The notes under the pieces: generated by a model | The model's database searches: none | The model's input: the letters and a program-made list of their open reading frames with translations, nothing else | Told to the model about the DNA's origin: nothing | Source of the DNA: Schmidtea polychroa | Lineage: Eukaryota | DNA: 64,000 nt | Assembly: GCA_044892525.1 (NCBI GenBank) | Contig: CM097885.1 | Span: 35,404,001 to 35,468,000 of the forward strand | Reading direction: 5' to 3' | Program-made: the position numbers and the translations under genes | Shown here: positions 926-57,815 of the stretch, one piece after another | Position numbering within the stretch: the stretch's first letter is position 1 | Layout: each line of letters begins with the position of its first letter

Positions 926-926
<1 letters not shown>

Positions 927-5146: not shown

Positions 5147-26914
<21,768 letters not shown>

Positions 26915-29684: not shown

Positions 29685-30015
29685 AGTAGATAGATAGGGA
29701 ACCGCTAGATCAGGACTCCGCTGGATCACATACCCCCACCCCCCCCACCTAGGGGAAATTTTTAAAATTCTTTTCAAGGTCAAATTTTTAATGTAAAGTT
29801 CATTTTTTTTTTAAATTTGAAATTCGAGAGTTCCTGACAAGAGATATTATTATTTGAAAATAAAGGTCTTTGAAACACAGGGATTATTATATATATATAG
29901 TCTGAATTTATCCGACAAGATATTCTGTCCCCTATGGGTAATGCTCACAAGGGTATGGTCACATTCAACATGTCGCAAGGGTATTATTAAACAAATCAAC
30001 ATTGTATTTTTATTA

Positions 30016-30058
<43 letters not shown>

Positions 30059-30155
30059 TTTTTATTTTTTTTTTCTAATATTTTAATTTTTTTTTATTTA
30101 TTATTTATTTATATTTTTATTTTTATTATTTATTTATATTTTTATTTTTATTATT

Positions 30156-30256
<101 letters not shown>

Positions 30257-30469
30257 TTCATTATTATTATTATTATTATTAAGATTTACAAAATTATTAT
30301 TAGTTTTCATAATAAATTAAGACATTAAAAGATATATTGAATCACAGATCAATTCGATAACAATACGTCATCTATATCAATATCATTGGCATCATTGGCT
30401 TCATTGTCATCATCATTGAAATCTGGACTCATTCCGCTAAAAAGTGGACGAATTTATGAAATTACTTGA

Positions 30470-33412: not shown

Positions 33413-33966
33413 ATTAAAGCGTAAATTTTTTCTCGCCCCTTAAAATCTATCTCAATTTCAGGTTCATCGTCAATATCGATCGAACTCTTATTATTTACTG
33501 AACCACCTATTTGAATATTATTTAAATCACTTATTTGATCTATTTTAGTAATTTTAGAGGGAACACCAGACCAAAAACTAACAGCAGGCTGTTTATTATT
33601 TAGAATATTATTTATTTTAGTATTTAGATTAGTATTATTTACATTATTATTTACATGTTTTGTATTATAATTTATAGGTTTTGTATTTAAGTGTTTTGTA
33701 GTATTATGTGTTGATTGTTGTATTTTAATAAACAATTTCTTTTTATTTAAAGAGAACCGATTTAAATGCGATTTGTGAATATTATAAAACTCTATATATT
33801 TAATGCGTTGGGAAGTCTCGCATATTAGACATATAAAGTAGTTGATGCCATAGAATCTATGACCGTAGTATTTTTTCATATTTTTATGGCATATATTTGT
33901 ATGATCATTTGATGACATGCAGTAGCGTGGGTATAATTTACCTGATAAATTATAAATATATATCAA
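33364..33966 (-). CDS. Cys/His-containing, Asn-rich ORF overlapping the polB start; probable frameshifted polB N-terminus
   Basis: Overlaps polB by 49 nt in another frame; CLIC...H..H cluster; ends its plausible part at DFKG just where the polB frame opens. Confidence 0.5.
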   Translation of the reverse strand: MIYIYNLSGKLYPRYCMSSNDHTNICHKNMKKYYGHRFYGINYFICLICETSQRIKYIEFYNIHKSHLNRFSLNKKKLFIKIQQSTHNTTKHLNTKPINYNTKHVNNNVNNTNLNTKINNILNNKQPAVSFWSGVPSKITKIDQISDLNNIQIGGSVNNKSSIDIDDEPEIEIDFKGREKIYALIWKRITWCKFPLQIKL

Positions 33967-34722
33967 ATATATTAATAGATTTAAAAATTAATAGTTAATT
34001 GCATTTATATTTAATGTCTTTATTAACAATTCTTAAGCAGTTTTTATCGCATAATAATTATAAAACGGAATAATAATCGGAATACATATATAATTTATTG
34101 TAATATTTTTATTATCAGAGGTATAAAATATGGGAGATATCATAAATATTATTATCATTGTTATTATTATTATTATTATTATTTTTAAATATTATTATAA
34201 AAGAGAGTAGTTGCGTGCTCAATGCAAACTATGTTTGACAATTAATATTTTCAAAGTATTATTTCTATTCAATAATTATTTTCATAACAACTTATTAATT
34301 TCAACATCATTTTCAGGAACATATTCATATTTGTCATAATTATCTTCAGAAAGATTTTCATAATTTTCAGGAACATTTCGTGATTTTCATAATTATTTTC
34401 AGAAACATTTTCATACTTCATAATTTTCAGATTTTTCATAATTATCTTCAGAAAGATTTTCATAATTTTCAGGAACATTTCGTGATTTTCATAATTATTT
34501 TCAGAAACATTTTCATATTTTTCATAATTTTCAACATTTTCATAATTTATATGTGGTTATTAAACAAATTAATTATCAAACACAATTTTAAATTAATTTA
34601 AAAAAATAATAATAAAATATAACTAACATTTTGATTCTATATCGGAATCATCCTCAGATTCATCCCCATAAGAAACGGAGGCATGATTAATTTAAAAAAA
34701 GCGACAAAAAAAGAGTAAAAAC

Positions 34723-35443
34723 AGTAGAGTAGATGGATTGGGCACCGCTGGAACGCCCCCCCCCCGTGTATAATATTGATAATAGTAATATTTCTATTTA
34801 TCTTGCACTAAGCTTCAAAATAAGTTATCGATCGATGAAATAAAATGATGGGAACGATACCTTTTGGGCAAACGAAAACCAGGTCACCGCTGGACCACTA
34901 ATAATATTTTGAATAATAATAATAATTTCACTATGAAAAGATGGTTGTCATCAATTGTTAATAACTATACCAATAATAATGATGATGATAATATTTATAT
35001 ATCAGTAGATAGATCTTGCACTGGGCTTTATAATGAGCTATCGAACGATGAAATAAAGTGATGGGAACGATAACTTTTGGGCAAACGAAAACCAGGACTC
35101 CGCTGGACCACTAATAATATTTTGAATAATAATAATAAAATAATAATATTTTTTAAAAATAATATGACCTTGATGAGTCATCACGATGAGTCATATGACC
35201 TTGGGATTGACCTTGGATGAGTCGCGCGACCTTGAAATGACCTCGAAATGGCCTTGATGAGTCATGGTCTTTGTTTTAATGACCTTGATGAGTCATATGT
35301 CTTTGTTTAAAATTTGACCTTGAAAAAAAATGTACTTTTAGACTTAGAAATTTTTAAAAAAATTTTCCGGCCGGGGGGGGAGGGGGGGTATATGTGGTCC
35401 AGCGGAGTCCTGGTCTAGCGGTTCCCCATCCATCTACTCTACT
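34723..35443. mobile_element. Mini Maverick-like terminal cassette (~720 bp) at the turn-around point of element A
   Basis: Ends AGTAGAGTAGATGGAT / ATCCATCTACTCTACT; right end GGTATATGTGGTCCAGCGGAGTCCTGGTCTAGCGG closely matches the element-A terminus; internal ~125-bp direct repeat (~34801 and ~35014) resembles element-B subterminal DNA. Confidence 0.75.
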
Positions 35444-35564
35444 GTTTTTACTCTTTTTTTGTCGCTTTTAACAGGTCCAATCTGGATTTAAGTGTAACAA
35501 TGTATAAGCAGAATTTAACTTTCTTCAAAATGGCGCAATTACAATTTCAGTTTATTTCTTTGTC

Positions 35565-36110
35565 TGTAATGCACACATGCTTTTTCAATAAATTTGTATT
35601 TTTTCGCGCGGTTAACGTTATTTTCTTGGATTTTTATTCATATAATATATAGATAAAATTTAATTTTCTATAAAATAGCTTGATTAAAATTTATGTATCT
35701 TGTTTTGTGTGTAATGCACAAATGTTTTTACAATAAATTTGTAATTTTCATACAGTTAACGTTATTTTCTTAGATTTTTATTCATATAATATATAGATGA
35801 AATTTAATTTTCTATAAAATAGCTTGATTAAAATTTATGTATCTTGTTTTGTGTGTAATACACACATGATTTTACAATAAATTTGTATTTTTCATACATT
35901 AAACGTAATTTTCATAGGATTTTATTCATATAACATATAGATAAAATTTAATTTTCTATAAAATAGCTTGATTAAAAATTATGTCTCGTATGTTGTGTGT
36001 AATACACACATGTTTTTACGATAAATTTGTATTTTTCATACAGTTAACGTAATTTTCTTAGGATTTTATTCGTATAATATAAAGATAAAATTTAATTTTC
36101 TATAAAATGG
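35565..36110. repeat. Tandem repeat, ~4 copies of ~146 bp
   Basis: Unit TGTAATGCACACATG...CAATAAATTTGTATTTTT...GATAAAATTTAATTTTCTATAAAATAGCTTGATTAAAA recurs at ~35565, 35710, 35855, 36000. Confidence 0.9.
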
Positions 36111-36676
36111 ATTGATCTAGAGTTAAATTTTGTATTATTTTATTACTTTGTTGCAATATGTTTATTATTTTAGTTACAATTTGATAAATATTTTACAACT
36201 TTGTTGAAATTTTCTGAAATATGTTACTACTTTGTTGTAATATTTTCTAATCTTGTTATAATTTGCTTAAATATTTTACAACTGTTGAAAATTTATCTGA
36301 AATATGTTATTACTTTGTTACAATTTTATGAAAAACGTTATTACTGTTTTGCAATTTGATGAAAAATGATATTACTTTGTGGGTTCATCACATTATTTTT
36401 ATTAAATTATTATGAAAATGTTAAATAAGTCAACTTTAGCGTCAAAATGTGTTTTAAAATATATTGAAGTTTTAAAATACTGCAACGTAATGCATTTATT
36501 TTTCCTACCCTTCCTTGATTTTGATTGGTCAGAATATATTTATTTTTCCTACCCCTTCCTTGATTTTGATTGGACCGTAAAATATTCATTTTCATTATAA
36601 GCAGTTACAATTTTCAAAATCGTCACAATTATTTTTAAATTTTACAAATTTTCGTCTAAAAAATTTTCGATTAAAA

Positions 36677-37171
36677 ATGGACGGTGAATTAGATAATATT
36701 TTACGCGCCATGTTGGCAGGAGAAAACGGTAAATTATTTTATTTTTATTATTATTATTATTTATTATTTTAGAGAATTTATGGTATGAAGTCACCGAGGC
36801 CGACAACTATAATCAAGATCAGCCAATTATTATTAGTGACGATGAAGAAGATCTTTTATTAAGTAAATTTATTTTTAAAATTTAATTGAAAATAAAATTA
36901 TTTAGTTGCTCAGCCTATTAATGACGGTGAAAATGTTATTGAAGACAATACCCGAGATATTATCATGGAATCAACGGGTAAATTTATTTTATTTAATTAA
37001 TGAATTACAAAAACTTTAGGTGATGATACCTCGAATGTTGAATATGCCCCAAATATTATTAATGTTTCTGGTGAATATGCCCTCACGTCTATTGAGGAGG
37101 AAATTAATCATGCCTCCGTTTCTTATGGGGATGAATCTGAGGATGATTCCGATATAGAATCAAAATGTTAG
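36677..37171 (+). CDS. Spliced acidic orphan protein (~121 aa) inside element A
   Basis: Exons 36677-36728, 36773-36862, 36906-36977, 37020-37171; three phase-1 GTAAAT...TTTAG introns of 42-44 nt; MDGELDNILRAMLAGENENLWYEVTEADNY...SYGDESEDDSDIESKC; two ATTGG (CCAAT) repeats upstream at ~36500-36575. Confidence 0.7.
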
Positions 37172-37740
37172 TTATATTTTATTATTATTTTTTTAAATTA
37201 ATTTAAAATTGTGTTTGATAATTAATTTGTTTAATAACCACATATAAATTATGAAAATGTTGAAAATTATGAAAAATATGAAAATGTTTCTGAAAATAAT
37301 TATGACAAATATGAATATGTTCCTGAAAATGATGTTGAAATTAATAAGTTGTTATGAAAATAATTATTGAATAGAAATAATACTTTGAAAATATTAATTG
37401 TCAAACATAGTTTGCATTGAGCACGCAACTACTCTCTTTTATAATAATATTTAAAAATAATAATAATAATAATAATAACAATGATAATAATATTTATGAT
37501 ATCTCCCATATTTTATACCTCTGATAATAAAAATATTACAATAAATTATATATGTATTCCGATTATTATTCCGTTTTATAATTATTATGCGATAAAAACT
37601 GCTTAAGAATTGTTAATAAAGACATTAAATATAAATGCAATTAACTATTAATTTTTAAATCTATTAATATATTTGATATATATTTATAATTTATCAGGTA
37701 AATTATACCCACGCTACTGCATGTCATCAAATGATCATAC

Positions 37741-39045
37741 GATTACCAGTCACTTAATCCCCAGTCACTTAATCCCCGTCACTTAATCCCCGTCCATTAA
37801 TCCCCGAGTCACTTAATCCCCGAGTCACTTAATCCCCGACACTTAATCCCAAAAATGCCATTTTAAGTTTAAAATTATGAAAGAATTTAATTCAAACAAT
37901 TATTTTTATAATTATTTAGTAATTGTTTTATATGAACACGGCAATCATATCAAATTCAAAAAGCTAATAATTCACTATTCATGTATTCATTTTAAGTGTG
38001 AAAATCAATATGACAGGTAAGCTAATGATCGGAGGTACAATAGACGATACATTGACTCATAGCGCTGTACAATGTTGTAAATTCTCCTAGATAATTCAGC
38101 GTACTTCCTCCTTGGACGTTGCTCTGTGCCGGCGCATGACTGAAGAACCGATGCCTTGTGTAGCTGACAATCCTTACGTAGACCATCGAGGAATGTCCAC
38201 ATTGTTGGATGATGACACGAGAAGAGAGACTGTAGGGCGTGATGCCAACCCTCCACAGCATTGTTTGTTCGTGCAACACCGCCGATGACATCCAGGTATT
38301 TATTCCAAGTTTCTGGAGGAAATAACGCTGAAGCATAGTTATCTCCTCTACCGCGCAGTCTGCGACCACGTACATACGTTTGCTCGAAGTATGCTAGCAG
38401 TTCTGGCATGCGATCATGCTGCGGCATTGACTCTGCAAGCAATTCAAAAGAATCAACAATGTCTTCTTCACGAACATAGGCCAATGCTGGGAGGCATCTG
38501 ACCATTCCACGTAACTCGTCGTTTTCGTCATAATCACTTCTCATACCCAATTCGGCGACTTTGCGTAATACCGCTTGACTTAAGTGAAAATAACATCCCG
38601 TTACTCTACATGACGGAAAATTCTCTTGAAAAGCGGTCATTGCAGCTTTCTCAAAGACCGGACACTTTAGCGATTGATGCTTGGTACATCTCCAATTCAT
38701 GTTTCCGTTTAGCGCCTTCTTCTTGAGCCAGAATTCATATCCCTCATGAACTAGCATAGATCTTCCTTTACTACTTATTATGAACTCTAGATGCATTTTT
38801 CTAACGGTAATAATATTTCAAAATAATATTTTCAATAATATTTCAATAACGGTAATAATATTACAAAAATATTCGTACTAACTGAAATTGACAGCACTAC
38901 ATTACACAATGCTTTATAAAGGAATTTATAAAGGGGATTAAGTGACTCGGGGATTAAGTGACTCGGGGATTAAGTGACTCGGGGATTAATTGACGGGGAT
39001 TAATTGACGGGGATTAAGTGACTGGGGATTAAGTGACCTGTCACC
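37741..39045 (-). mobile_element. MULE/Mutator element, internally deleted, in the right arm of element A only
   Basis: 8-bp TSD GATCATAC (37733-37740 / 39046-39053), single copy at the empty site in the left arm (~33900); termini built of tandem GTCACTTAATCCCC units in inverted orientation. Confidence 0.93.
38005..38796 (-). CDS. FLYWCH-MULE transposase derivative with in-frame internal deletion (263 aa)
   Basis: FLYWCH-like KGRSMLVHEGYEF...WRCTK...CP fused directly to FEKAA...GCYFHLSQA...RTNNAVEGWH. Confidence 0.85.
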   Translation of the reverse strand: MHLEFIISSKGRSMLVHEGYEFWLKKKALNGNMNWRCTKHQSLKCPVFEKAAMTAFQENFPSCRVTGCYFHLSQAVLRKVAELGMRSDYDENDELRGMVRCLPALAYVREEDIVDSFELLAESMPQHDRMPELLAYFEQTYVRGRRLRGRGDNYASALFPPETWNKYLDVIGGVARTNNAVEGWHHALQSLFSCHHPTMWTFLDGLRKDCQLHKASVLQSCAGTEQRPRRKYAELSRRIYNIVQRYESMYRLLYLRSLAYLSY

Positions 39046-39072
39046 GATCATACAAATATATGCCATAAAAAT

Positions 39073-39588
39073 ATGAAAAAATACTACGGTCATAGATTCT
39101 ATGGCATCAACTACTTTATATGTCTAATATGCGAGACTTCCCAACGCATTAAATATATAGAGTTTTATAATATTCACAAATCGCATTTAAATCGGTTCTC
39201 TTTAAATAAAAAGAAATTGTTTATTAAAATACAACAATCAACACATAATACTACAAAACACTTAAATACAAAACCTATAAATTATAATACAAAACATGTA
39301 AATAATAATGTAAATAATACTAATCTAAATACTAAAATAAATAATATTCTAAATAATAAACAGCCTGCTGTTAGTTTTTGGTCTGGTGTTCCCTCTAAAA
39401 TTACTAAAATAGATCAAATAAGTGATTTAAATAATATTCAAATAGGTGGTTCAGTAAATAATAAGAGTTCGATCGATATTGACGATGAACCTGAAATTGA
39501 GATAGATTTTAAGGGGCGAGAAAAAATTTACGCTTTAATATGGAAAAGGATAACTTGGTGCAAATTTCCCTTACAAATAAAATTATAA
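39073..39588 (+). CDS. Right-arm copy of the ORF upstream of polB, 5' end interrupted by the MULE
   Basis: Identical translation to the C-terminal 171 aa of 33364-33966. Confidence 0.5.
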   Translation: MKKYYGHRFYGINYFICLICETSQRIKYIEFYNIHKSHLNRFSLNKKKLFIKIQQSTHNTTKHLNTKPINYNTKHVNNNVNNTNLNTKINNILNNKQPAVSFWSGVPSKITKIDQISDLNNIQIGGSVNNKSSIDIDDEPEIEIDFKGREKIYALIWKRITWCKFPLQIKL

Positions 39589-42482
39589 ATAAATTAATTG
39601 CCGAAATCAAAGGTATGGGCACAGTTAAAATACAATTCACCGTTTTAATCCAATTCGAAAAAGATGGGGAAATTAGAGATAATTTTTTCTCTAATAGCGC
39701 AGAAGTTTTTTCAGAAAATTTTTTGATAAATGGAATCACCAGATTAAATAATAAAATTGAAAAGTTCACATATTTGGGAAGCGGATGGCGGGTGGTTAAA
39801 ATCAAAGAAATAGATTTTATATTAACTAAAAATACACATATGAATAGGCTAGCTGGACATAGTTATATCCCCACCCCATCAGCTTTAAATTCTAAAAAAG
39901 CAATAGTAAACGTCAAAAACACCGACGATATGTGCTTTATCTATAGTATTTTAGCACTGTTAAAACGCAATGTAGTACATATAAATAGAAATCGTGTTAG
40001 TTCCTATGAAAATTATCTTGACGAGTTAAATTTTGACCCCATAGATGATTGCCCCATGAAATTATGTGATATCCCCAAATTTGAAAGGAAAAACAAGGAT
40101 TTAAATTTATCAATAAATGTTTTAATTTATAAAAAGACCCCAGGTAAGCCTTATGAAAATGTAATTGACGATAATTATATTCCACGTCATCCTCATTTAG
40201 ATATTATTCACCGATCTAAAGTTATAGGTGGTGAACCCATATACTTACTTTTATTGGAAGACGGTGATAATTTCCATTATACCGCAGTTTTTAACTTACA
40301 AAAATTAATGAACTCACATCCCAGTAGCTCCTGCAACCTTTGGATTAGAGTGAACTGGTGTCCCCATTGTCTCAATGGTTTTAGACATAAAAATGCATTT
40401 GATATTCATGTCGCCTTATGCATAAAAAACCAGATAGGAACAACTCTATACACCCTACCTAAAGATAAAAATTTAATTTTTCAAAATTATGCGAAGACAA
40501 TCACCCCGCCATTCGTGATATATGCCGATTTTGAGGCAATTTTACCCGAGGATATAATACACCATCAAAAGCACTTGCCAATAACAGCAGGCATGTTATT
40601 AATTAATAATTATAATAACACAAAATTTTATTATGAGTTTGTTGGTGATGATTGTGTGTTGTCTTTCTTGCGTAAGGTGGAGGAAATTGCTGTCACAATT
40701 GTCCTGCCATATTACGAAATTAATGGGAAAAAGCCCATGCAAACTTTGTCTTTCGTTCAACAGCGGGCATATAAAGATTCCAGAACCTGTTATCTGTGTA
40801 AAAAATTCATTAGAGATAGAGTTAGGGACCATTGCCACTTCTCAGGCAAGTATCTTGGTGCTGCTTGTAGGAAATGTAATGTTTCTCGGCGAATTCAGAG
40901 ACAGTTACCGGTTGTGTTCCATAATTTTAGGGGGTATGATCTCCATCATATTTTGAAGTATGGCTTGAATAATTTTCCTTCTTGGGAGTTAAATATTATT
41001 CCGACCACTACCGAGAAATTCATCTCTCTCATCGCGTACATTAACAAATTGCCTGTTCGTTTTATTGACAGCATGCAGTTTGTTAATTCATCTTTAGCAA
41101 AAGCGGTTAAGACTCTTTCCGATCTGCCTTTAACTTCTTCTGTTTTTGATGGCGCAATTGTTCGAGCCAAAGGTATCTTTCCTTATGACTTCGCTACATC
41201 TCTTGAGGTTCTGGAATCAACTCTTGAACTACCTCCGATCTGGGATTCTGTGTCTAATGATGAGTATGCATTAGCCCAAGTTATTTGGACTCAGCAAAAT
41301 TGCAATAACATGTTAGATTACATGTTGACTTACCTTAAATTAGATGTATTTCTATTTGCAGACTATTTTCAACAATTCCGTGCAAAGGCCATTGCTTACA
41401 ATGGTCTTGAACCTCTAAATTTCTATGGTATTCCCGGTATGTCATGGGCTTCAGCGCTTATCACATTAACGGAACCTATTGAACTTTTGCAGGACATGGA
41501 AATGTTTAATTTCTATGAAGGAGGGATACGGGGTGGGTTAACATTTGTTAACAAACATTATGTTGCTAGTTCTGAAGACACTGAACTCTTGTACATAGAT
41601 ATTAATAACTTGTATGGTTGGGCCTTAAGCCAAAATCTGCCTTATGCTGACTTTGTATGGGTGTATGATGATCTTGATTCTGTCTTGAATGAATGTATGA
41701 ATGCTGATATTGATAACCTTCCATATGGGTATACTATGGAAGTTGATATCGAAATTCCGGAATGCTTGCATGACTTCCTTAACGACTTTCCTATTGCTGC
41801 AGAAAAGATGTGTCCACCAAATTCTAAAGTTGAGAAGCTGATGCTCACGCATTGGCCAAAGAAGAACCATGTTCTTCATTGGAGACTTCTCAAGTTGTAT
41901 ATAGAATTGGGGGCTATTATTAAAAATGTACATAGAGCTATTAAATTTTCGCATGCACCCATTTTTAAATCATACATAGATAAAAACACTAATTTGAGAG
42001 CAAATTCTACATGTGAATTATATAGGGATCTATACAAATTATTTAATAATAGTTTGTATGGTAAATCGGTGGAGAATCTAAAAAAGCGGATGAATTTGAG
42101 GCTATGCAATTCAGCTGAAAAGATGATTGTATATGCTTCAAAGCCAACTTTCAGAAAATCTATCAAAATTGCTGATGATCTGATTGTGGCTCATCTGAAT
42201 AAGGACTCTATATGTTTAGACAGGCCTAGCTATATTGGTCAAACAGTGTTAGATTTGTCTAAACTAAGAATGTATCAACTACAATATGTGGAATTGGCCA
42301 AGTACAGGTCTGAATTTAATTGTGATATAAATATCGTTGCCGGTGACACTGACTCCTTTTTCTTAGAGATAAAGCACTGTAAGCTTGACACTCTTTTGCC
42401 GGCAATGATAAGAGACAGCCTTCTAGACACGTCAAATTATTTACACATCACATTATTTAGGAGTCGATGTTCCAGATGTTGA
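39540..42482 (+). CDS. polB: Protein-primed DNA polymerase B, 980 aa, C-terminally truncated; right-arm copy
   Basis: Same motifs as left copy; two amino-acid differences seen (PVHF/PVRF, FLLAD/FLFAD). Confidence 0.92.
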   Translation: MEKDNLVQISLTNKIINKLIAEIKGMGTVKIQFTVLIQFEKDGEIRDNFFSNSAEVFSENFLINGITRLNNKIEKFTYLGSGWRVVKIKEIDFILTKNTHMNRLAGHSYIPTPSALNSKKAIVNVKNTDDMCFIYSILALLKRNVVHINRNRVSSYENYLDELNFDPIDDCPMKLCDIPKFERKNKDLNLSINVLIYKKTPGKPYENVIDDNYIPRHPHLDIIHRSKVIGGEPIYLLLLEDGDNFHYTAVFNLQKLMNSHPSSSCNLWIRVNWCPHCLNGFRHKNAFDIHVALCIKNQIGTTLYTLPKDKNLIFQNYAKTITPPFVIYADFEAILPEDIIHHQKHLPITAGMLLINNYNNTKFYYEFVGDDCVLSFLRKVEEIAVTIVLPYYEINGKKPMQTLSFVQQRAYKDSRTCYLCKKFIRDRVRDHCHFSGKYLGAACRKCNVSRRIQRQLPVVFHNFRGYDLHHILKYGLNNFPSWELNIIPTTTEKFISLIAYINKLPVRFIDSMQFVNSSLAKAVKTLSDLPLTSSVFDGAIVRAKGIFPYDFATSLEVLESTLELPPIWDSVSNDEYALAQVIWTQQNCNNMLDYMLTYLKLDVFLFADYFQQFRAKAIAYNGLEPLNFYGIPGMSWASALITLTEPIELLQDMEMFNFYEGGIRGGLTFVNKHYVASSEDTELLYIDINNLYGWALSQNLPYADFVWVYDDLDSVLNECMNADIDNLPYGYTMEVDIEIPECLHDFLNDFPIAAEKMCPPNSKVEKLMLTHWPKKNHVLHWRLLKLYIELGAIIKNVHRAIKFSHAPIFKSYIDKNTNLRANSTCELYRDLYKLFNNSLYGKSVENLKKRMNLRLCNSAEKMIVYASKPTFRKSIKIADDLIVAHLNKDSICLDRPSYIGQTVLDLSKLRMYQLQYVELAKYRSEFNCDINIVAGDTDSFFLEIKHCKLDTLLPAMIRDSLLDTSNYLHITLFRSRCSRC

Positions 42483-42698
42483 TCAAGTAATTTCATAAAT
42501 TCGTCCACTTTTTAGCGGAATGAGTCCAGATTTCAATGATGATGACAATGAAGCCAATGATGCCAATGATATTGATATAGATGACGTATTGTTATCGAAT
42601 TGATCTGTGATTCAATATATCTTTTAATGTCTTAATTTATTATGAAAACTAATAATAATTTTGTAAATCTTAATAATAATAATAATAATAATAATGAA

Positions 42699-42786
<88 letters not shown>

Positions 42787-42819
42787 TTAATAAAATAATA
42801 ATAATAATAAAAATAATAA

Positions 42820-42860
<41 letters not shown>

Positions 42861-42897
42861 TCTTTAGAAATAATAATGTTAATAATAAGATATATGG

Positions 42898-42930
<33 letters not shown>

Positions 42931-43029
42931 TAATAAAAATAAAAATATAAATAAATAATAAAAATAAAAATATAAATAAATAATAAATAAAAAAAAAATT
43001 AAAATATTAGAAAAAAAAAATAAAAAAAA

Positions 43030-43060
<31 letters not shown>

Positions 43061-43393
43061 TAATAAAAATACAATGTTGATTTGTTTAATAATACCCTTG
43101 CGACATGTTGAATGTGACCAGTACCCTTGTGAGCATTACCCATAGGGGGACAGAATATCTTGTCGGATAAATTCAGACTATATATATATAATAATCCCTG
43201 TGTTTCAAAGACCTTTATTTTCAAATAATAATATCTCTTGTCAGGAACTCTCGAATTTCAAATTTAAAAAAAAAATGAACTTTACATTAAAAATTTGACC
43301 TTGAATAGAATTTTAAAAATTTCCCCTAGGTGGGGGGGTGGGGGGTATGTGATCCAGCGGAGTCCTGATCTAGCGGTGCCCTATCTATCTACT

Positions 43394-45028: not shown

Positions 45029-45724
45029 TTTAAAAATGAACTTGTCTAGAAGAAAAGATGATTCCTTCGTTCATTTTTAAGTGATAAAAGTGATAATAAA
45101 AATTGATAATAATAACAGTTAAATATAATTGGCATCGATATTAGGGAAAGACTTTATTGATTAAGAAAAATGATATGTCACCAAGAAGTCTGAAAATTAT
45201 CAAGCACATTCTGTTTAGGTAATTTATTCAGCTTAAGTAATTTAATTTGCATAAAGTAGTAGTAGGATGTGAGCTCCACAGACCACATATACCCCCCCTC
45301 CCCCCCGGAAAAAAAATTTTTTAATTTAATTTTTTGTTTTAATTAATTGGTCCAGAGGGCTCACACTTTTTTTCATCCCAAAAATTAATGTTCCAGCCAA
45401 TAGATTTTATTGGACGATACCTCATCTTAAAACCCTTTGCAAGACCTTTAAGATGTGCTATAGGTATCTTTAATAGTTTTAATGTTATTAACATTTAATG
45501 ACCACCATCTTTTCAAAGTTAAATTATTATTATTTTCCAAAATATTATTAAGTGATCCAGCGGGCTCCTACTTTTTTTCATCCCAAAAATTAACGTTCCC
45601 ATTATCCGAATTTATTGGACGATACCTCATCTTAAAGCTCAGTCCAAGACCTTTCGAATGAGCTATAGAAGGTATCATCATCATTAATATTAATAAAGAG
45701 AATGACTCACCCAATGACTCACCC

Positions 45725-46197
45725 AACGATGCCTCTTATTTTTAGAATGATTACGTCATATTTTTAGAATGATTACGTCATAATTTTAGAACGATGCCTA
45801 ATATTTTTAGAATGGTGCCTCTTATTTTTAGAATGATTACGTCATATTTTTAGAACGATTCCTAATATTTTTAGAACGATGTCTAATATTTTTAGAACGA
45901 TGCCTAATATTTTTAGAATGATGCCTAATATTTTTAGAATGGTGCCTCTTATTTTTAGAATGATTACGTCATATTTTTAGAATGGTGCCTAATATTTTTA
46001 GAATGGTGCCTCTTATTTTTAGAATGATTACGTCATATTTTTAGAACGATTCCTAATATTTTTAGAACGATGTCTAATATTTTTAGAATGATGCCTAATA
46101 TTTTTAGAATGGTTACGTCATAATTTTAGAACGATGCCTAATATTTTTAGAATGATTACGTCATATTTTTAGAACGATGCCTCTTATTTTTAGAACA
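45725..46197. repeat. 21-22 bp minisatellite with TTACGTCA motifs
   Basis: Units TTTTTAGAATGATTACGTCATA / TTTTTAGAACGATGCCTAATA / TTTTTAGAATGGTGCCTCTTA; ~20 units here, ~5 in the mirror arm (55990-56100). Confidence 0.9.
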
Positions 46198-46494
46198 AAT
46201 AATTTTGTTTTAATTATCGATTACATAATAATTTAATTTTGTTTAAATCATTGATTATATAATTTTTTGTTTTAATTATTGAATACGTAATAATATAATT
46301 TTGTTTAAATCGTTGATTACATATTATTATTTTTTAATTTTCAATATTTTCTTTTAAAATATTAACGCACGCGTGGATGTTGTTATTATCATATATAATC
46401 TATCCGACAAGATATTCTGTCCCCCTATGGGTATTGGTCACAAAGGTACTGCTCACAATCAACATGTCGCAAATTATTTTCAAATACAATTTCA

Positions 46495-46570
<76 letters not shown>

Positions 46571-46614
46571 GAAAACCTCAAATATTTTTTACACACATAT
46601 ACAACCCATTAAAC

Positions 46615-46710
<96 letters not shown>

Positions 46711-47086
46711 ATTATTATTATTATTATTAGTGAAAAAATCTTAAATAATTTTTACATACTAAGTTATGGGGTAGAGTATTATTATGTTTGCAGTATTCTG
46801 TGTTTGCCTTTACAGGAAGTTGTCAATAAGGAGCGATAATTTTACACACACATTCTATATACACATACCTTGTTTAACATGGGTGTATATACTCCTAGTC
46901 TATCCGACAAAATATTCTGTCCCCCTATGGGTATTGATAGCAAGGGTACTACTCACACTCAAAGGTTTTCGATTTTAAAGCATATTATGGTTTATTAAGG
47001 TTAGTAAATAAAACTTATCACACACACTTTAATATTTAAACGATAAAAATCAAGACAAGAGAGGACAAGGCAAAGTGTATGCATTT

Positions 47087-47307
47087 AGTATTGCCAGGCC
47101 TAATGAGCAGTGACCAAATATCTGTGCCTGAAAGACACGGTGGATATTTGTTCGCGTCCACAAGGGTCGTCTGTGCCTCCCCCAAGTGGGGTCAGAAGAA
47201 CCTGGGCATTATAGCTTTCCGTACGGAACATTACGCCTAGCATGGGTAGTCAACTACCAGCACATTCGAAACGTATAATTTCAAAATACATGCGTCATTG
47301 GCACTAT
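47087..47307 (+). ncRNA. Candidate structured RNA with degenerate hammerhead-like frame (mirror copy ~54890-55112, minus)
   Basis: GC-richer island with several hairpins (CAAATATC/GATATTTG, CCCC-AAGT-GGGG, CTGGGC/GCCTAG, TTCC-GTAC-GGAA, GGTAG-TCAA-CTACC) between CTAATGA and GAAACGTAT...ATGCGTC. Confidence 0.4.
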
Positions 47308-48389
47308 AACCAAATTAATTAATGTTTTCACTAACACAAATATATATTTACAGAGGCCTCCCACTAGTTGGATTACAACCGCCCACCACGACGATCAGCT
47401 TGTAAATATATATTAATTAAGGGATAAAGAGGACCCACTCAACCCTATTATATTTAATTTACAAATTTTTCTCGCTCTTCTGTTGGTAATCTATCTCAAA
47501 ATTAATCTCTCCATCAGGCCATTTGATAGTGATTTCATGGAATACATCTTGCGAATTGGACGTATCTCTTATTTTCTGATGCGGCGTCAACTCTCATTGC
47601 TAAAATATCTATTGATTTAAAAGCAATTAATTTACATCATCTAACATTTTATCATCACAGGCTTGATAAATTATGCAATATTGGTATACTTTTTCAATGT
47701 CATTTCCCACCATTCCCAGATACCTAAATATAATATATATATATTTTAAAGAATTAATTCATATCTTACATTCGAAATAATATTCTTCAGGTATGACGAG
47801 TACTTTACTTAATTGATAAAACATCGGTTTTTCCCATTTTTCTTGACATTCGTTGAAAGTTTACATAATTTAAGTCTGATAATTCATGTTGAAGGACACC
47901 CACAATCAGCTAATTCATTTAAAAAATCCAGAACATAAGTCATTTAGTGTTTCACCATTTTGTCTGGTTCATTTTCTTCTATAATTCATGTTTTAATAAG
48001 AAATTTCTAAATCCAGAACATAAGTCATTTAGTGTTTCACCATTTTGTCTGGTTCATCTTCTTCATAATCATATAATTCATTTTCTTCATTACTAAGTAA
48101 AATAATTAAAATATTGTAGTAAATTCTTTATTTACTTACTTTATGGATACTAAAATGAAAGAAATAAAGTTATATCAAAATTATATTTAAATAATTTAAA
48201 TTTAGTATTTAAACATATTTAAACACTTTAGTTATTTAAGCATATTTAAACATTATTATATAGTATAACTTTATAAAATATTATAATATTATAATTTTAT
48301 GTATTCTAAATTTATTAATAAATATAGTATAATTTTATATAATATTATGTATTGATAATTTAATATATCCTTCATTAAATTTTTTAAAT

Positions 48390-48821
48390 TCAAAAATTTA
48401 TAATGAAGATTCTTTGAATTAAAAAATATTCTGTTAGTATTTCCAGGCAGAAATCAACGAATTCAATAATTAAAATCTTAATTTTCATATTGTTAGGGTT
48501 GTGACCAGAAGTTAATCGCCATCTAATCGTTTGTTCAGTTATCAGCCTGTTCTCAATTTTGCTCATTTTGTTCAAAACATTCAGGTGAGTTGTTATTTGG
48601 AAAGTTTCTTTGAGCTCAGTTTTGTTAAAACACTCACGGTATTTTCGAGGGACGTGACACTGGAAATAAATTAACAATGGGTGGTCATCCATACATGTTG
48701 TTAGTCTGAGCTCTCGATTTATTTTAGAAATAGGTATATTAAAAACATTTAAGTTATCATTCAGTAAAATAATATAATATTTTTGAGTTAATTTATAAAT
48801 AACAGTATTTTGATATATCAA
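48390..48821 (-). CDS. Hypothetical protein (up to 143 aa), left-arm copy
   Basis: Open in both arms; directly downstream of the conserved cis module; no recognisable domain. Confidence 0.3.
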   Translation of the reverse strand: MIYQNTVIYKLTQKYYIILLNDNLNVFNIPISKINRELRLTTCMDDHPLLIYFQCHVPRKYRECFNKTELKETFQITTHLNVLNKMSKIENRLITEQTIRWRLTSGHNPNNMKIKILIIEFVDFCLEILTEYFLIQRIFIINF

Positions 48822-51800
48822 TAAAGACCATATACTCCGAGTTTATCCGACAAAATATTCTGTCCCCCTATGGGTATTGCTAGCAAGGGTACTGGTCACA
48901 TTCAACATGTCGCAAGGGTATATTAATCAGTTAGAAATTCTTAGGTAATTTAGTGAGATGATCACAAATTCGTGAATATTTTAAATGTAACTTTACACTT
49001 TTGTCGAGCGACTAATTTATTGGTTAACATTTTAGACATTTAAAGCAAAAATTAATTTATTCATCTAATGTTCGTTACAATAGTTAATAATATGAGAAAA
49101 ACATGGTCATTATTCATTGATAATTTTAAATTCTTTATCATTTGGAGTAAATTTGTTTGAGGCAAAAATAATTAAAGGAGTCATAATAGAAATATGGTTA
49201 TCATTTATCCAATTAAGGGGCTTATTAGTTAGAAATATATATTATAAAGTAACAATTATTTTCTAATTTAATTAGATGATCATTAGACGTAATATATCTT
49301 TGCGAGAAATTTAAGATGTTTGAGTAACCAAAACATGGATATTTTGTGCGATAAATTTATGAATATTGGTTAATTTTGTTATTTTTAGTCATTTAAAATA
49401 ATATTTAGCAAAGGTAATTAGCAAAATATTATTTATCCACCCGATAACAATATTCCTTCAATAGATTAACTGATATTCAACCTATTTAATTTCTGGAAAT
49501 ATAATTAAAATCATAAATTTCCTTCAATAAAGTTAAATTTTCTTTAGTTGTCGATGTCCAACTCAATATTTTTGTTACCGTTATCTTCATAATGAATGTC
49601 CGTCTTTAACATGTTAAATAAAATAATTTAAAGCAATAACCTTTGATATCAATTATCTCTAAATATTTCAAATATTTCATTGACAAAACCAAGTAAATTA
49701 GTCATTAACCCTAAACACTTTGATAAAATCCTGGATAATTAATAGACTATTTCCCTTGAAACATTTCCAATAAGAACATCACCCATTTAAATATTCAAAA
49801 CATTTCCACCCTAACCGATACCTCACCAAATATTTCTACTCCTTTAAACATTCAACCGACTATATCCCCCTTTAAATACTATATATTCCCAACTTAACCG
49901 AACCCTCACTAAATCCAACCGACTATATCTCTTAATTTCACCCACTTGAGCCCTTTAATATAGCTTAAAATCTATAGAAAATTCTTCAAAATATGAATTT
50001 TATTTAATTGTTACAGACATTTTTCCTATGAAATAATTTAGTAGCTAAATTCAAAGAGTCCACTTAAAGATCAAAATTCATTAAAATAAATATTTAACCA
50101 CATGTATCATCAAATACCTAACTAGAGATGATAATATCTCATTGATTGATCATAATTCTTCATCGATTCAACTAATTATAACCATTATAACATGATATAT
50201 CTTTCAAACTAAATTTCAGTATATTTTACAATAATTTTCAAGTAGATTTCAAATATATCATCATCGTGAAAAAATTAGATGGTTTCAACTTTAGATTTTC
50301 AATATTTTAAATTTCATCAATGTGTAAATATTCTTATAAAAATATATGAAATAATTATTTAGTCAAATTATCATTACAAAGTCATCATCATCATCATCAA
50401 AATTAATAAAATATAGCAAATTATCAAGAAATTAACTAAATTTGTCTTAGAATTAACACTAAAACCTTAAATATTCTTTCAATTAACATGAAATTCACAA
50501 AAATAATTGTTAGTAAAATCCCGCTAACGCTAAAAATTACCAATGAATTTAATGCCAAATAATAACCAAAAATTTGCCTAAATAAAATCATTAAAACACA
50601 ACAATACCTTTACGACCAGTACCCTTACGACAATACCCTTACAAGCAGTACCCATAGAGGGAGAAAATATGTTGTCGGATAAACTCCGAGTATATATATA
50701 ATAAAACGAATTAACAATAACTCCATCAAATTGAATCAGTCAAATTATCACAAATTTTAATAAAAAATCTTATTCTAAAGTGGTAAGCAGCGTAAAATCG
50801 AAAGATAATTTTAATAACACAGAGATAAAATTAACAATATTATTCTCAGGTGGTAAGAATATTTTATTTTTGAGTCTGTTATCCCTCTATTATCATTGCC
50901 TACTTGATGTTTTCATAAATTTAAGTAAAGTTAATGCTGGGTATGTGTTCTGACACACTTTGTTTCCTTCTTAACTTTGAGTGATCATTTTGATTAAAAA
51001 GAGTAATGTATCTTAAATTATCTTTTAGAATATCCGTTTTTAAAATATTTAATGTAAAATAGCAAATATCATAATTATTAATTCAATATTAAAGGAGTTA
51101 ATCAAAATTTAAAATATAAAGTTATCATAATTGCTTAGTCAAATACCATTTGTTATGTATGTTTGTCATTTTTGGATTAAATACTTTATCAAAATAAATG
51201 TTTATCACATTATTAAAATATTTTAATTCGTTAGTCACTCATATATTAGAAATAATTTATAAATACTCATCACTTATAGCCCCCCATTTTCCACTAATCC
51301 TCCTAACAACTATTTCTTTGAACATTGAATTAAATATTTTTTTTTTATTAAAGTGATCATTTTTATAAATTTTTATGAATTTCATGAAATAATTTTAAAT
51401 AAATGCAATTAATATATTTCCATCTTATCTATGCCACTTCTCAATATATTTACATTTATTTTCCATTAATGAATAATTCAAAAACCCTTATTTTCACCTT
51501 TTTGAATTTCATTATTAATTAATCATAGAATAATGATGATTCTTACCACCTGAGAATAATATTGTTAATTTTATCTCTGTGTTATTAAAATTATCTTTCG
51601 ATTTTACGCTGCTTACCACTTTAGAAAAAGATTTTTTATTAAAATTTGTGATAATTTGACTGATTCAATTTGATGGAGTTATTGTTAATTCGTTTTATTA
51701 TATATATACTTGGAGTTTATCCGACAACATATTTTCTCCCTCTATGAGTACTGCTTGTAAGGGTAGTTAATTTCTTGATAATTTGCTATATTTAATTAAT

Positions 51801-53377
51801 TTTGATGATGATGATGACTTTGTAATGATAATTTGACTAAATAATTTTTTCATATATTTTTCTAAGAATATTTACACATTGATGAACTTTAAAATATTGA
51901 AAATCTAAAGTTGAAACCATCTAATTTTTTCACGATGATGATATATTTGAAATCTACTTGAAAATTATTGTAAAATATACTGAAATTTAGTTTGAAAGAT
52001 ATATCATGTTATAATGGTTATAATTAGTTGAATCGATGAAGAATTATGATCAATCAATGAGATATTATCATCTCTAGTTAGGTATTTGATGATACATGTG
52101 GTTAAATATTTATTTTAATGAATTTTGATCTTTAAGTGGACTCTTTGAATTTAGCTACTAAATTATTTCAATGGAAAAATGTCTGTAACAATTAAATAAA
52201 ATTCATATTTTGAAGAATTTTCTATAGATTTTAAGCTATATTAAAGGGCTCAAGTGGGTGAAATTAAGAGATATAGTCGGTTGGATTTAGTGAGGGTTCG
52301 GTTAAGTTGGGAATATATAGTATTTAAAGGGGGATATAGTCGGTTGAATGTTTAAAGGGGTAGAAATATTTGGTGAGGTATCGGTTAGGGTGGAAATGTT
52401 TTGAATATTTAAATGGGTGATGTTCTTATTGGAAATGTTTCAAGGGAAATAGTCTATTAATTATCCAGGATTTTATCAAAGTGTTTAGGGTTAATGACTA
52501 ATTTACTTGGTTTTGTCAATGAAATATTTGAAATATTTAGAGATAATTGATATCAAAGGTTATTGCTTTAAATTATTTTATTTAACATGTTAAAGACGGA
52601 CATTCATTATGAAGATAACGGTAACAAAAATATTGAGTTGGACATCGACAACTAAAGAAAATTTAACTTTATTGAAGGAAATTTATGATTTTAATTATAT
52701 TTCCAGAAATTAAATAGGTTGAATATCAGTTAATCTATTGAAGGAATATTGTTATCGGGTGGATAAATAATATTTTGCTAATTACCTTTGCTAAATATTA
52801 TTTTAAATGACTAAAAATAACAAAATTAACCAATATTCATAAATTTATCGCACAAAATATCCATGTTTTGGTTACTCAAACATCTTAAATTTCTCGCAAA
52901 GATATATTACGTCTAATGATCATCTAATTAAATTAGAAAATAATTGTTACTTTATAATATATATTTCTAACTAATAAGCCCCTTAATTGGATAAATGATA
53001 ACCATATTTCTATTATGACTCCTTTAATTATTTTTGCCTCAAACAAATTTACTCCAAATGATAAAGAATTTAAAATTATCAATGAATAATGACCATGTTT
53101 TTCTCATATTATTAACTATTGTAACGAACATTAGATGAATAAATTAATTTTTGCTTTAAATGTCTAAAATGTTAACCAATAAATTAGTCGCTCGACAAAA
53201 GTGTAAAGTTACATTTAAAATATTCACGAATTTGTGATCATCTCACTAAATTACCTAAGAATTTCTAACTGATTAATATACCCTTGCGACATGTTGAATG
53301 TGACCAGTACCCTTGCTAGCAATACCCATAGGGGGACAGAATATTTTGTCGGATAAACTCGGAGTATATGGTCTTTA

Positions 53378-53809
53378 TTGATATATCAAAATACTGTTAT
53401 TTATAAATTAACTCAAAAATATTATATTATTTTACTGAATGATAACTTAAATGTTTTTAATATACCTATTTCTAAAATAAATCGAGAGCTCAGACTAACA
53501 ACATGTATGGATGACCACCCATTGTTAATTTATTTCCAGTGTCACGTCCCTCGAAAATACCGTGAGTGTTTTAACAAAACTGAGCTCAAAGAAACTTTCC
53601 AAATAACAACTCACCTGAATGTTTTGAACAAAATGAGCAAAATTGAGAACAGGCTGATAACTGAACAAACGATTAGATGGCGATTAACTTCTGGTCACAA
53701 CCCTAACAATATGAAAATTAAGATTTTAATTATTGAATTCGTTGATTTCTGCCTGGAAATACTAACAGAATATTTTTTAATTCAAAGAATCTTCATTATA
53801 AATTTTTGA
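53378..53809 (+). CDS. Hypothetical protein (up to 143 aa), right-arm copy
   Basis: Identical translation to 48390-48821. Confidence 0.3.
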   Translation: MIYQNTVIYKLTQKYYIILLNDNLNVFNIPISKINRELRLTTCMDDHPLLIYFQCHVPRKYRECFNKTELKETFQITTHLNVLNKMSKIENRLITEQTIRWRLTSGHNPNNMKIKILIIEFVDFCLEILTEYFLIQRIFIINF

Positions 53810-55488
53810 ATTTAAAAAATTTAATGAAGGATATATTAAATTATCAATACATAATATTATATAAAATTATACTATATTTATTAATAAATTTAGAATACAT
53901 AAAATTATAATATTATAATATTTTATAAAGTTATACTATATAATAATGTTTAAATATGCTTAAATAACTAAAGTGTTTAAATATGTTTAAATACTAAATT
54001 TAAATTATTTAAATATAATTTTGATATAACTTTATTTCTTTCATTTTAGTATCCATAAAGTAAGTAAATAAAGAATTTACTACAATATTTTAATTATTTT
54101 ACTTAGTAATGAAGAAAATGAATTATATGATTATGAAGAAGATGAACCAGACAAAATGGTGAAACACTAAATGACTTATGTTCTGGATTTAGAAATTTCT
54201 TATTAAAACATGAATTATAGAAGAAAATGAACCAGACAAAATGGTGAAACACTAAATGACTTATGTTCTGGATTTTTTAAATGAATTAGCTGATTGTGGG
54301 TGTCCTTCAACATGAATTATCAGACTTAAATTATGTAAACTTTCAACGAATGTCAAGAAAAATGGGAAAAACCGATGTTTTATCAATTAAGTAAAGTACT
54401 CGTCATACCTGAAGAATATTATTTCGAATGTAAGATATGAATTAATTCTTTAAAATATATATATATTATATTTAGGTATCTGGGAATGGTGGGAAATGAC
54501 ATTGAAAAAGTATACCAATATTGCATAATTTATCAAGCCTGTGATGATAAAATGTTAGATGATGTAAATTAATTGCTTTTAAATCAATAGATATTTTAGC
54601 AATGAGAGTTGACGCCGCATCAGAAAATAAGAGATACGTCCAATTCGCAAGATGTATTCCATGAAATCACTATCAAATGGCCTGATGGAGAGATTAATTT
54701 TGAGATAGATTACCAACAGAAGAGCGAGAAAAATTTGTAAATTAAATATAATAGGGTTGAGTGGGTCCTCTTTATCCCTTAATTAATATATATTTACAAG
54801 CTGATCGTCGTGGTGGGCGGTTGTAATCCAACTAGTGGGAGGCCTCTGTAAATATATATTTGTGTTAGTGAAAACATTAATTAATTTGGTTATAGTGCCA
54901 ATGACGCATGTATTTTGAAATTATACGTTTCGAATGTGCTGGTAGTTGACTACCCATGCTAGGCGTAATGTTCCGTACGGAAAGCTATAATGCCCAGGTT
55001 CTTCTGACCCCACTTGGGGGAGGCACAGACGACCCTTGTGGACGCGAACAAATATCCACCGTGTCTTTCAGGCACAGATATTTGGTCACTGCTCATTAGG
55101 CCTGGCAATACTAAATGCATACACTTTGCCTTGTCCTCTCTTGTCTTGATTTTTATCGTTTAAATATTAAAGTGTGTGTGATAAGTTTTATTTACTAACC
55201 TTAATAAACCATAATATGCTTTAAAATCGAAAACCTTTGAGTGTGAGTAGTACCCTTGCTATCAATACCCATAGGGGGACAGAATATTTTGTCGGATAGA
55301 CTAGGAGTATATACACCCATGTTAAACAAGGTATGTGTATATAGAATGTGTGTGTAAAATTATCGCTCCTTATTGACAACTTCCTGTAAAGGCAAACACA
55401 GAATACTGCAAACATAATAATACTCTACCCCATAACTTAGTATGTAAAAATTATTTAAGATTTTTTCACTAATAATAATAATAATAAT

Positions 55489-55572
<84 letters not shown>

Positions 55573-55616
55573 GTTTAATGGGTTGTATATGTGTGTAAAA
55601 AATATTTGAGGTTTTC

Positions 55617-55692
<76 letters not shown>

Positions 55693-56779
55693 TGAAATTG
55701 TATTTGAAAATAATTTGCGACATGTTGATTGTGAGCAGTACCTTTGTGACCAATACCCATAGGGGGACAGAATATCTTGTCGGATAGATTATATATGATA
55801 ATAACAACATCCACGCGTGCGTTAATATTTTAAAAGAAAATATTGAAAATTAAAAAATAATAATATGTAATCAACGATTTAAACAAAATTATATTATTAC
55901 GTATTCAATAATTAAAACAAAAAATTATATAATCAATGATTTAAACAAAATTAAATTATTATGTAATCGATAATTAAAACAAAATTATTTGTTCTAAAAA
56001 TAAGAGGCATCGTTCTAAAAATATGACGTAATCATTCAAAAAATATTAGGCATCATTCTAAAAATATGACGTAATCATTCTAAAAATAAGAGGCATCGTT
56101 GGGTGAGTCATTGGGTGAGTCATTCTCTTTGTAAATATTAATGATGATGATACCTTCAATAACTCATTCGAAAGGTCTTGGACTGAGCTTTAAGATGAGG
56201 TATCGTCCAATAAATTCGGATAATGGGAACATTAAATTTTGGGATGAAAAAAAGTAGGAGCCCGCTGGATCACTTAATAATATTTTGGAAAATAATAATA
56301 ATTTAACTTTGAAAAGATGGTGGTCATCAAATGTTAATAACATTAAAACTATTAAAGATACCTATAGCACATCTTAAAGGTCTTGCAAAGGGTTTTAAGA
56401 TGAGGTATCGTCCAATAAAATCTGTTGGCTGGAACATTAATTTTTGGGATGAAAAAAAGTGTGAGCCCTCTGGACCAATTAATTAAACCAAAAAATTAAA
56501 TTAAAATTTTTTTTTCAGGGGGGGGAGGGGGGTATATGTGGTCTGGGGAGCTCATGGTCTGGGGAGCTCACATCCTACTACTTAAAGTAAATTAATCTTC
56601 AAAATTAATTGCATAATATATAAATAAATAATTTTAAAACGTAATCGTTAATTAAAAGCCTAAATGAAAATCTTACAAATGGAGGGATTTTATATGTCAA
56701 CAGAAAAAAGACAGATAATTCTTTTAGTTAAATAAATAAACAGGACTGTTTTATAACTACTTACAATGTAATTAGCAAA

Positions 56780-57815
56780 TGTAGAAACGAGTTCCATCAG
56801 TTCAATTTCTCTAGCAATATCATGTTGAATTGACAGAGTAACTGATCCGATAAGTCTTTTTTGTAGCATAAGTGTCCGCAAATATGTTTTATTAGTTTGA
56901 GCTTTGAGAAGCTTCGCTCTCCAGAAGTCACAGAAATTGGATAATCATGTGATTCTTTTCTTGAATCAAGAAGCTTTACAGAGCTATAACGTGCTGGGAA
57001 AACTTTCTGTTAGATTATTTTTCAGTATAAAGTTTAATACATCCTGTGCGATATACAATTTGCCATTCATCTTGAAATGAGTGTCAGTTCATGGCTTAAA
57101 TCAACTGTGTCGATATCTTTAAAGTTACCTTGTTGCAAAGCTTTCTCAAGATTCAAAAAATGTTCCATAACTTTCCTGCTAGTTTTATTATACAAACTGT
57201 AAACATCTTAGAGGAAATCAAAAATCGAACTAATATTTTGCATCAGAGTGAATCTTTCTTCAACCGATTTCTATTGCCGTGTCAAGTACAACTAATTAAA
57301 AGTTTACTTCAAATTTGTCTTTTGGATCCTGAATAGGTTTGTCGTCATCTCCTTCGTATGCACATTGCTTCTTCTTTCATCTGATGCGAGTTGGTTAATG
57401 TGTTCAAAAAGTGCTGACACCTCTAAATTGACTGCAATTTCAGCTGCATCTAACAGTTTTTCTAAAAATTGGTGTCATTTTTGTGGTTTACGAGAAACTT
57501 CTTCAATTCATCCAGATGATTGATGGCGACATGCATTTCTAAATTTTGCCTGACGTTGTTTATTAGTCTTTTTTTCATCTCAAACAACAAGTCATACCAT
57601 AGAACCAGAGAAACTAGAGTTTCTGTTAAATTTGTGTCATCCGCAATCTCTACCAGGGCATTGTAGACATCACCAAATTCCCGTCATCAAAAGTGTTCAG
57701 TTTCAATATTTGCTGCCAATACTGTTTCTTTTAATGAGACACAAATGTTTGGCATCAATTGTTTTCATGTGTGTTGGGCTACAACTGACTTTTAGACCCA
57801 AATTTCTAATTGTGA
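56780..57815 (-). pseudogene. hAT transposase remnant, C-terminal part (ZMYM1-like)
   Basis: ISVTSGERSFSKLKL...TYLRTLMLQKRL dimerisation motif across a frameshift. Confidence 0.75.

Follow-up and report, generated by a model that had tools for sequence, protein, structure and literature searches.

An 11.3-kb near-palindrome with Maverick-type ends and no recognized Maverick gene in the genome of Schmidtea polychroa

The replication of Maverick (Polinton) elements has so far been inferred from their genes, and a folded single-stranded intermediate has only been proposed (PMC4196379). The end motif is defined as 5'-(AGT)2//(ACT)2-3' or (AG)3, a "jumping-back" role is stated for the terminal AGT repeats, and intact vertebrate copies have terminal inverted repeats (TIRs) of 46-1,447 bp in a length of 12.7-24.6 kb (PMC8097293). 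Here, a window of 64,000 nucleotides of Schmidtea polychroa (assembly GCA_044892525.1, contig CM097885.1, positions 35,404,001 to 35,468,000 of the forward strand) was analysed. It holds a near-palindrome with Maverick-type termini, element B, and a second palindrome with Maverick-type DNA polymerase (pPolB) frames, element A (Table 1). Element B is probably a non-autonomous fold-back derivative of a Maverick, mobilised in trans by a helper and through a mechanism that we infer from the sequence.

The junctions of element B read TAAAGT followed by AGTAGTAGGATGTG on the left and CATCCTACTACT followed by TAAAGT on the right. An exact 6-bp repeat at these fixed ends has a chance of 6.6e-4, with the composition of the flanks considered. 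AGT also closes the left copy of this target-site duplication (TSD), and the register is set by the right end. The 6-bp TSD comes from one insertion, and element B is a real insertion that looks recent. The first-pass annotation had placed the perfect TAAAGT repeat exactly there, and its arms of about 5.6 and 5.0 kb and spacer of about 680 bp agree with the 5,603, 5,044 and 678 bp measured. Its description of the element as about 94% palindromic holds for the share of the arms in the length (10,647 of 11,325 bp, 94.0%) and not for the pairing, as 88.8% of the bases are truly paired. The aligned arms are identical at 5,003 of 5,028 bases (99.5%) and differ by indels of 362 (tandem array), 197, 16, 12, 3 and 1 bp. 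As to the surroundings, the left flank is the 5' portion of a Penelope element, and the right flank (56760-57550, minus strand) resembles a decayed hAT transposase.

Table 1. Coordinates of element B, its parts and related features of the window
Feature	Position	Strand	Remarks
Element B	45258..56582	.	11,325 bp; termini AGTAGTAG...CTACTACT
Left target-site duplication TAAAGT	45252..45257	+	
Right target-site duplication TAAAGT	56583..56588	+	
Left arm	45258..50860	+	5,603 bp
Right arm	51539..56582	-	5,044 bp; 16-bp duplication near end (56539-56570)
Spacer	50861..51538	.	678 bp; multi-variant in public runs too
Terminal motif	45258..45310	+	AGTAGTAG, GACCACATAT, then C-run; 26-bp word also present in the terminus inside the centre of element A
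Two subterminal direct repeats	45342..45668	+	About 200 bp each, 81.6% alike; terminal motif inverted inside; 70.6% over 282 bp to 34801-35081
Two TGACTCA words, then 21-bp tandem array	45703..46195	+	22 copies in left arm, 5 in right arm; seven TTACGTCA words
Arm core	46150..49839	+	Arms free of substitutions over 3,678 aligned bases
TATCCGACAA module, copy 1	46396..46473	+	Further copies at 46901 (+), 48844 (+), 50672 (-); mirrors at 51718, 53346, 55289, 55777
(TAT)n microsatellite	46498..46729	+	Mirror 55470-55689
7SL RNA 5' (Alu-head)-like stretch	47351..47399	-	Mirror 54800-54848 (+); Rfam RF00017, 29.6 bits, E 8e-5, below gathering score 70
Left-arm-only 197 bp	50437..50633	+	Arm-like depth in runs X1 and X5
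Longest open frame	53357..53809	+	150 codons; no homologue
Exon-like chain	54111..54740	+	Two candidate 46-nt GT-AG introns; no homologue
Element A	29685..43393	.	Palindrome inserted into a Penelope element (TSD ATTAAC/AATAAC); both arms with a Maverick-type pPolB frame
Small inverted-repeat element	34697..35469	.	AGTAGAG termini; embedded at arm/centre boundary of element A; closest relative of element B ends in the window
Third Maverick-type end fragment	515-930		GCAGATAGATAGGGGACCGCTGGATCACAT, (TAT)n and, at 757, the module; about 70% identity to the end of element A; no partner end in the window

No Maverick gene was recognized in the stretches of element B that were searched, in agreement with the earlier annotation, which had suggested a profile search of spliced translations. 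Profiles were run on six read-through frames of 46740-51538, where Pfam gave no family and PHROGs a single match (E 0.097). In tblastn, 120 pPolB homologues gave no hit to 45258-51538, and the same test recovers the pPolB N-terminus in element A. The 1,269 open reading frames (ORFs) of 82 loci of relatives, rve integrase and A32 ATPase genes included, gave five hits in element B, two on the tandem array and three of at most 31 bits. None of the proteins by which Mavericks are identified (pPolB, retroviral-like integrase, ATPase, protease, capsid) was thus found in element B, by searches of limited sensitivity to very old remnants. Two read-through segments found no homologue among proteins of near-equal length. 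A 3,897-aa Sushi-repeat protein (phmmer E 2e-5, in the frame adjacent to the exon-like one) was rejected; its score sums weak repeats, with a best pairwise match of 29 bits.

Element B belongs to a high-copy family with multiple variants. Part of its arm is present in 20 of the 24 sequencing runs listed, four of which (X1, X5, X8 and X19) were aligned. On the 4.8 kb of 46740-51538, there are 65,905 contigs from X1, 10,105 from X5, 1,241 from X8 and five from X19, and those of X1 and X5 cover 30 of 30 bins, spacer included. The ratio of arm to spacer in median summed depth (21 module-free arm bins against 4 spacer bins) is 2.8 in X1 and 5.4 in X5, where two arms per spacer predict 2 and a more diverged spacer would inflate the value. 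Summed depth compared with the depth of long single pieces suggests, roughly, that the copies number in the hundreds. The right arm has probably lost the 197-bp segment kept at 50437-50633 in the left arm, because the depth of this segment is arm-like in X1 and X5.

The differences between the arms are not spread evenly. There are 14 substitutions in 513 bases of the outer part, one in the array, none in the core and 10 in 821 bases of the inner part; at the inner rate, a core free of differences has a probability of about 3e-20. From the 40 variant family sites shown (263 in all), 15 were checked, 14 of them lying in paired DNA, and the arms agree at 14 of 14. At five sites (47439, 47566, 47638, 48777 and 49963), both arms carry a letter absent from at least 95% of the depth in X1 and X5. 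Arms that resemble each other beyond the family majority imply arm-to-arm copying, unless alleles of a local subfamily or polishing of the assembly are responsible. Taken together, the pattern suggests that repeated arm-to-arm copying has shaped the core. In element A, 4 of the 11 substitutions between the arms lie in the outer 88 bp and 7 beyond. The idea that the MULE in the right arm of element A blocks homogenisation was discarded, as its inner arms show no difference in 640 bp.

Element A is the neighbour through which the Maverick lineage is identified. This 13.7-kb palindrome has its 11 substitutions in 4,845 aligned bp, and its excision together with 6 bp aligns the flanking Penelope reverse transcriptase and GIY-YIG frames in register, which taken alone is a 1-in-3 coincidence. 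Its pPolB matches a PHROG polymerase (E 4e-20). At E<=1e-20 there are 233 homologous proteins, of which the top one is 59% identical and about 1,240 aa long. The frame measures 989 aa from stop to stop, and the C-terminal part of these relatives is absent. The right arm alone is interrupted (about 37741-39045) by a FLYWCH/MULE element of 1.3 kb, the 9-bp TSD of which matches at 8 of 9 positions. Element A is not to be taken for the helper, because it is a palindrome itself, its pPolB is short at the C-terminus and no Maverick integrase was recognized among the 11 ORFs of the window (of 69) that were scanned with Pfam. The pPolB N-terminal frame is preceded, at 36677-37159, by micro-exon-like pieces with three 42-44-nt GT-AG introns; as these pieces sit in the unpaired centre, the right-arm polymerase copy alone would have them.

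Within the window, the closest match to the end of element B is a terminus that lies inside the central part of element A. The two share a 26-bp word, and the alignments extend over 282 bp at 70.6% identity (E 1e-35), 168 bp at 75.6% and 43 bp at 88%. The TATCCGACAA module, about 100 bp long, is 89-91% identical between element B and the ends of element A (29909 and 43160), and it recurs at 757. This shared cis DNA suggests that element B is tied to the Maverick lineage of element A, which would be a sister derivative. The first-pass annotation had based this link on three cis motifs; all are present, and the closest match is the embedded terminus, not the ends of element A. One of them, CGCTGGATCAC, has a terminal position both in element A and in the fragment at 528, but its copies in element B are internal and inverted (45552 and 56263). 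The view of element B as a non-autonomous, Maverick-dependent element gains support from its (AGT)2 ends, 6-bp TSD, lack of a detected gene and many family variants. Of its comparison to a MITE (miniature inverted-repeat transposable element)-like partner of a Maverick, the dependence fits, and the size and the likely replicative origin do not. The embedded small element begins exactly at the arm/centre boundary of element A, with 27 bp outside AGTAG inverted on both sides and no evident TSD, and carries four TGAGTCA words and subterminal repeats like those of element B. It may mark the fold-back point of element A.

Among the relatives of this polymerase, each of the three long loci examined (30-33% identity) matches both an rve integrase and an A32-type ATPase; of these six matches, two fall below the Pfam cut-off. 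The word GTAGTAGT opens two viral contigs. The DNA of element B has no similarity to the 82 loci except two AT-rich hits (E 0.005), and long arms occur in none of them, most being short contigs. The terminal pattern of element B was found in no metagenome contig; the module pattern, the end-word pattern and a pPolB alone were found in no viral contig. In one metagenomic relative, the pPolB, integrase-chromodomain and ATPase genes are accompanied by a sequence for a TBP domain (L021:7815-8399; Pfam E 4e-12).

An autonomous Maverick at another genomic locus probably supplies the polymerase that would copy element B and the integrase that would insert it, and the AGT repeats of element B would serve as the origin of protein-primed replication and as integrase ends. 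A strand-displacing polymerase could begin at one end, switch to the mirror template and thereby replace one half by a copy of the other. A double template switch would keep both old ends and duplicate the interior, turning short terminal repeats into arms of 5 kb, and the element may since have been amplified as a palindrome. Repeated copying from arm to arm, either at a folded, single-stranded stage or within the chromosome, would have homogenised the core but left the outermost ~500 bp and the spacer-proximal region unaffected.

Several points weigh against this interpretation. The simple panhandle model predicts that the ends are most alike, whereas in element B it is the core. Only one insertion with its TSD has been seen, and contigs cannot reveal whether other copies are palindromic; a turn from the spacer into the right arm is not found among the 15 joints shown of 185. 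The summed depth in X1 and X5 does not equal copy number. These two runs may come from other individuals, so that the "rare" alleles may belong to a local subfamily, and X1 may also be the data set from which the assembly was made. The core without differences could be partly a product of polishing. With the own termini of element A, element B shares only an 8-bp word. No Maverick integrase was recognized within the window (Pfam on 11 of 69 ORFs), and no helper was seen for element B, element A being defective.

A more tentative proposal, possible although we do not favour it, is that element B belongs to a class of heritable, snap-back defective genomes derived from an endogenous Maverick virus. 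The protein-primed polymerase of the helper would replicate the palindromes extrachromosomally, and template switching would re-make the arms in each cycle. Re-entry would use the helper's integrase, and the palindromes would outnumber the helper and interfere with it. Only cis signals would be kept (the origin, a bZIP-type enhancer array, the repeated module and the 7SL head), with a size possibly set by packaging in the capsid.

Instead of being replicated as a palindrome, a Maverick-ended element B could have become one at this locus, by inverted duplication after insertion, and be maintained only by host gene conversion, in which case most of the family would not be palindromic. Arm-to-arm conversion has been described for chromosomal palindromes. 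The drop of identity at both arm edges, as for conversion tracts that require flanking homology, would fit this, and no contig displays the fold of another copy. Element B, however, keeps both true termini and a perfect TSD, the neighbouring element A is independently palindromic, and the depth ratio of arm to spacer exceeds 2 in two runs. This makes an origin at the locus unlikely.

It is very unlikely that element B is a cut-and-paste element of the Foldback, Galileo or MULE type with AGT ends that resemble those of Mavericks by chance. Foldback elements, Galileo and MULEs duplicate 7 to 10 bp, and the TSD of element B has 6 bp. In favour of this type, Foldback-like elements typically have long arms with internal repeats, and element A contains a MULE at a distance of 6 kb. 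Galileo TIRs are known to lengthen by recruiting internal sequence, although its TSD is 7 bp (PMC3573991), and that of the local MULE is 9 bp. Moreover, element B showed no similarity to the transposase ORFs of the window (349 ORFs tested; hits to the module only), and its homology is to the pPolB element.

Palindromes are error-prone in assemblies, and differences between the arms persist only near unique anchors (flank and spacer), as polishing with reads would leave them. Still, a fold-back chimera would give neither a perfect TSD nor arm-specific indels of 362, 197 and 16 bp. Polishing with family reads would shift both arms to the family majority, whereas rare alleles are retained, and in element A the MULE is confined to one arm and 7 substitutions persist beyond the outer 88 bp. 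That the palindrome or its perfect core arose as an artefact of assembly or amplification is therefore hardly credible; for the zero-difference core of element B taken alone, the risk is low but appreciable.

A cargo of functional spliced genes too divergent to be detected, carried by a Maverick derivative, is scarcely to be expected: the length of the 150-codon frame is reached in only 1 of 500 local shuffles, candidate introns number two in the exon-like chain, compared with a single one in 6.4 kb elsewhere, and the pPolB of element A seemingly has leader exons with short introns, but the best coding score (11.8) is below the 95th percentile of the null (14.9), splicing of the chain in this copy does not preserve the frame, an insertion of 1 base at 48565, within the mirror copy of the long frame, accounts for 26% (X1) and 99% (X5) of the depth, and the frames and segments searched have no homologue found. 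An Atlas search with the 150-codon frame gave no usable match, and runs X8 and X19, guessed to be RNA, show no intron joint among those listed for element B. Both candidates are regarded as decayed or accidental, the exon-like chain possibly being a decayed captured gene.

Within the arms, the TGACTCA and TTACGTCA words resemble bZIP sites (AP-1, ATF/CRE). TGASTCA is not enriched over the window (its count of 10 is reached in 6 of 100 shuffles) and only its clustering is notable; the excess of TTACGTCA was traced to the single tandem array. Each arm has four copies of the TATCCGACAA module, three facing inward and one outward. An RNA structure of the module is unsupported (consensus -3.8 kcal/mol; two-sided change in 1 of 12 pairs). 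Only the first ~45-50 nt of the signal recognition particle (7SL) RNA align well, in comparison with the ~300 nt of Alu and S domains of a full gene. Folds are no more stable than those of shuffles, either for the head (z 0.29) or for 351 nt from it (z -0.77). An Rfam match to PhrS (E 0.003) is regarded as chance. The rest of the arms is AT-rich DNA.

Two further features of the window lie outside both elements. At 23495-25326, a 197-bp inverted repeat (90%) borders part of a host gene fragment resembling an MFS transporter. GC-rich (41-45%) open frames without a Pfam match occupy 61155-62181, in a window that otherwise has 27% GC. The transposons and short introns of the window suggest the DNA of an AT-rich animal.

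The 5-kb arms of a high-copy family record their own copying events. Comparing left arm, right arm and family for each copy could separate re-making at transposition from later chromosomal conversion, and could locate template switches. In element B as in element A, the arms resemble each other more in the core than at the ends, a testable departure from the simple panhandle model. Element B also defines the cis signals required by a Maverick. Hundreds of 11-kb palindromes, on our rough estimate, would affect genome stability and the quality of assemblies.

Non-autonomous Polintons of zebrafish were reportedly described by Kapitonov and Jurka in 2006 and are said to be present in Repbase as well. 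Such elements are said to be gene-less, with Polinton ends and dependent on a helper, as proposed here for element B, which would be less distinct if they had multi-kb TIRs. In the titles and abstract openings of the papers that the literature searches listed, no description of gene-less Mavericks with multi-kb arms was found. Copy-back and snap-back defective viral genomes (PMC13506859) are comparable in being almost completely self-complementary, non-coding and helper-dependent and in keeping the parental ends. However, these are described mainly as transient by-products of RNA viruses, whereas element B resides in a chromosome, is flanked by a TSD, has a spacer of 678 bp and belongs to a heritable multi-copy family. 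Like element B, MITEs and the 2-TIR elements of Galileo consist almost entirely of TIR, are non-autonomous and have internal tandem arrays of variable length (PMC3573991). Galileo, in contrast, is a cut-and-paste element of the P superfamily with a 7-bp TSD, its TIRs reach at most about 1.26 kb and its 2-TIR copies measure 1.7-2.2 kb, and MITEs are usually shorter than 600 bp, against 11,325 bp here (PMC3573991). With Mavericks, element B has in common the 5'-(AGT)2//(ACT)2-3' ends and 6-bp TSD, their commonest signature (PMC8097293), as well as terminal inverted repeats and a length on the scale of ten kb or more. In comparison with intact vertebrate copies, its arms are 5.0-5.6 kb long and make up 94% of the length, and its total of 11.3 kb is below their range. 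Element B is not a Maverick under the gene-based definition (PMC5499653), but it probably acts like a non-autonomous one.

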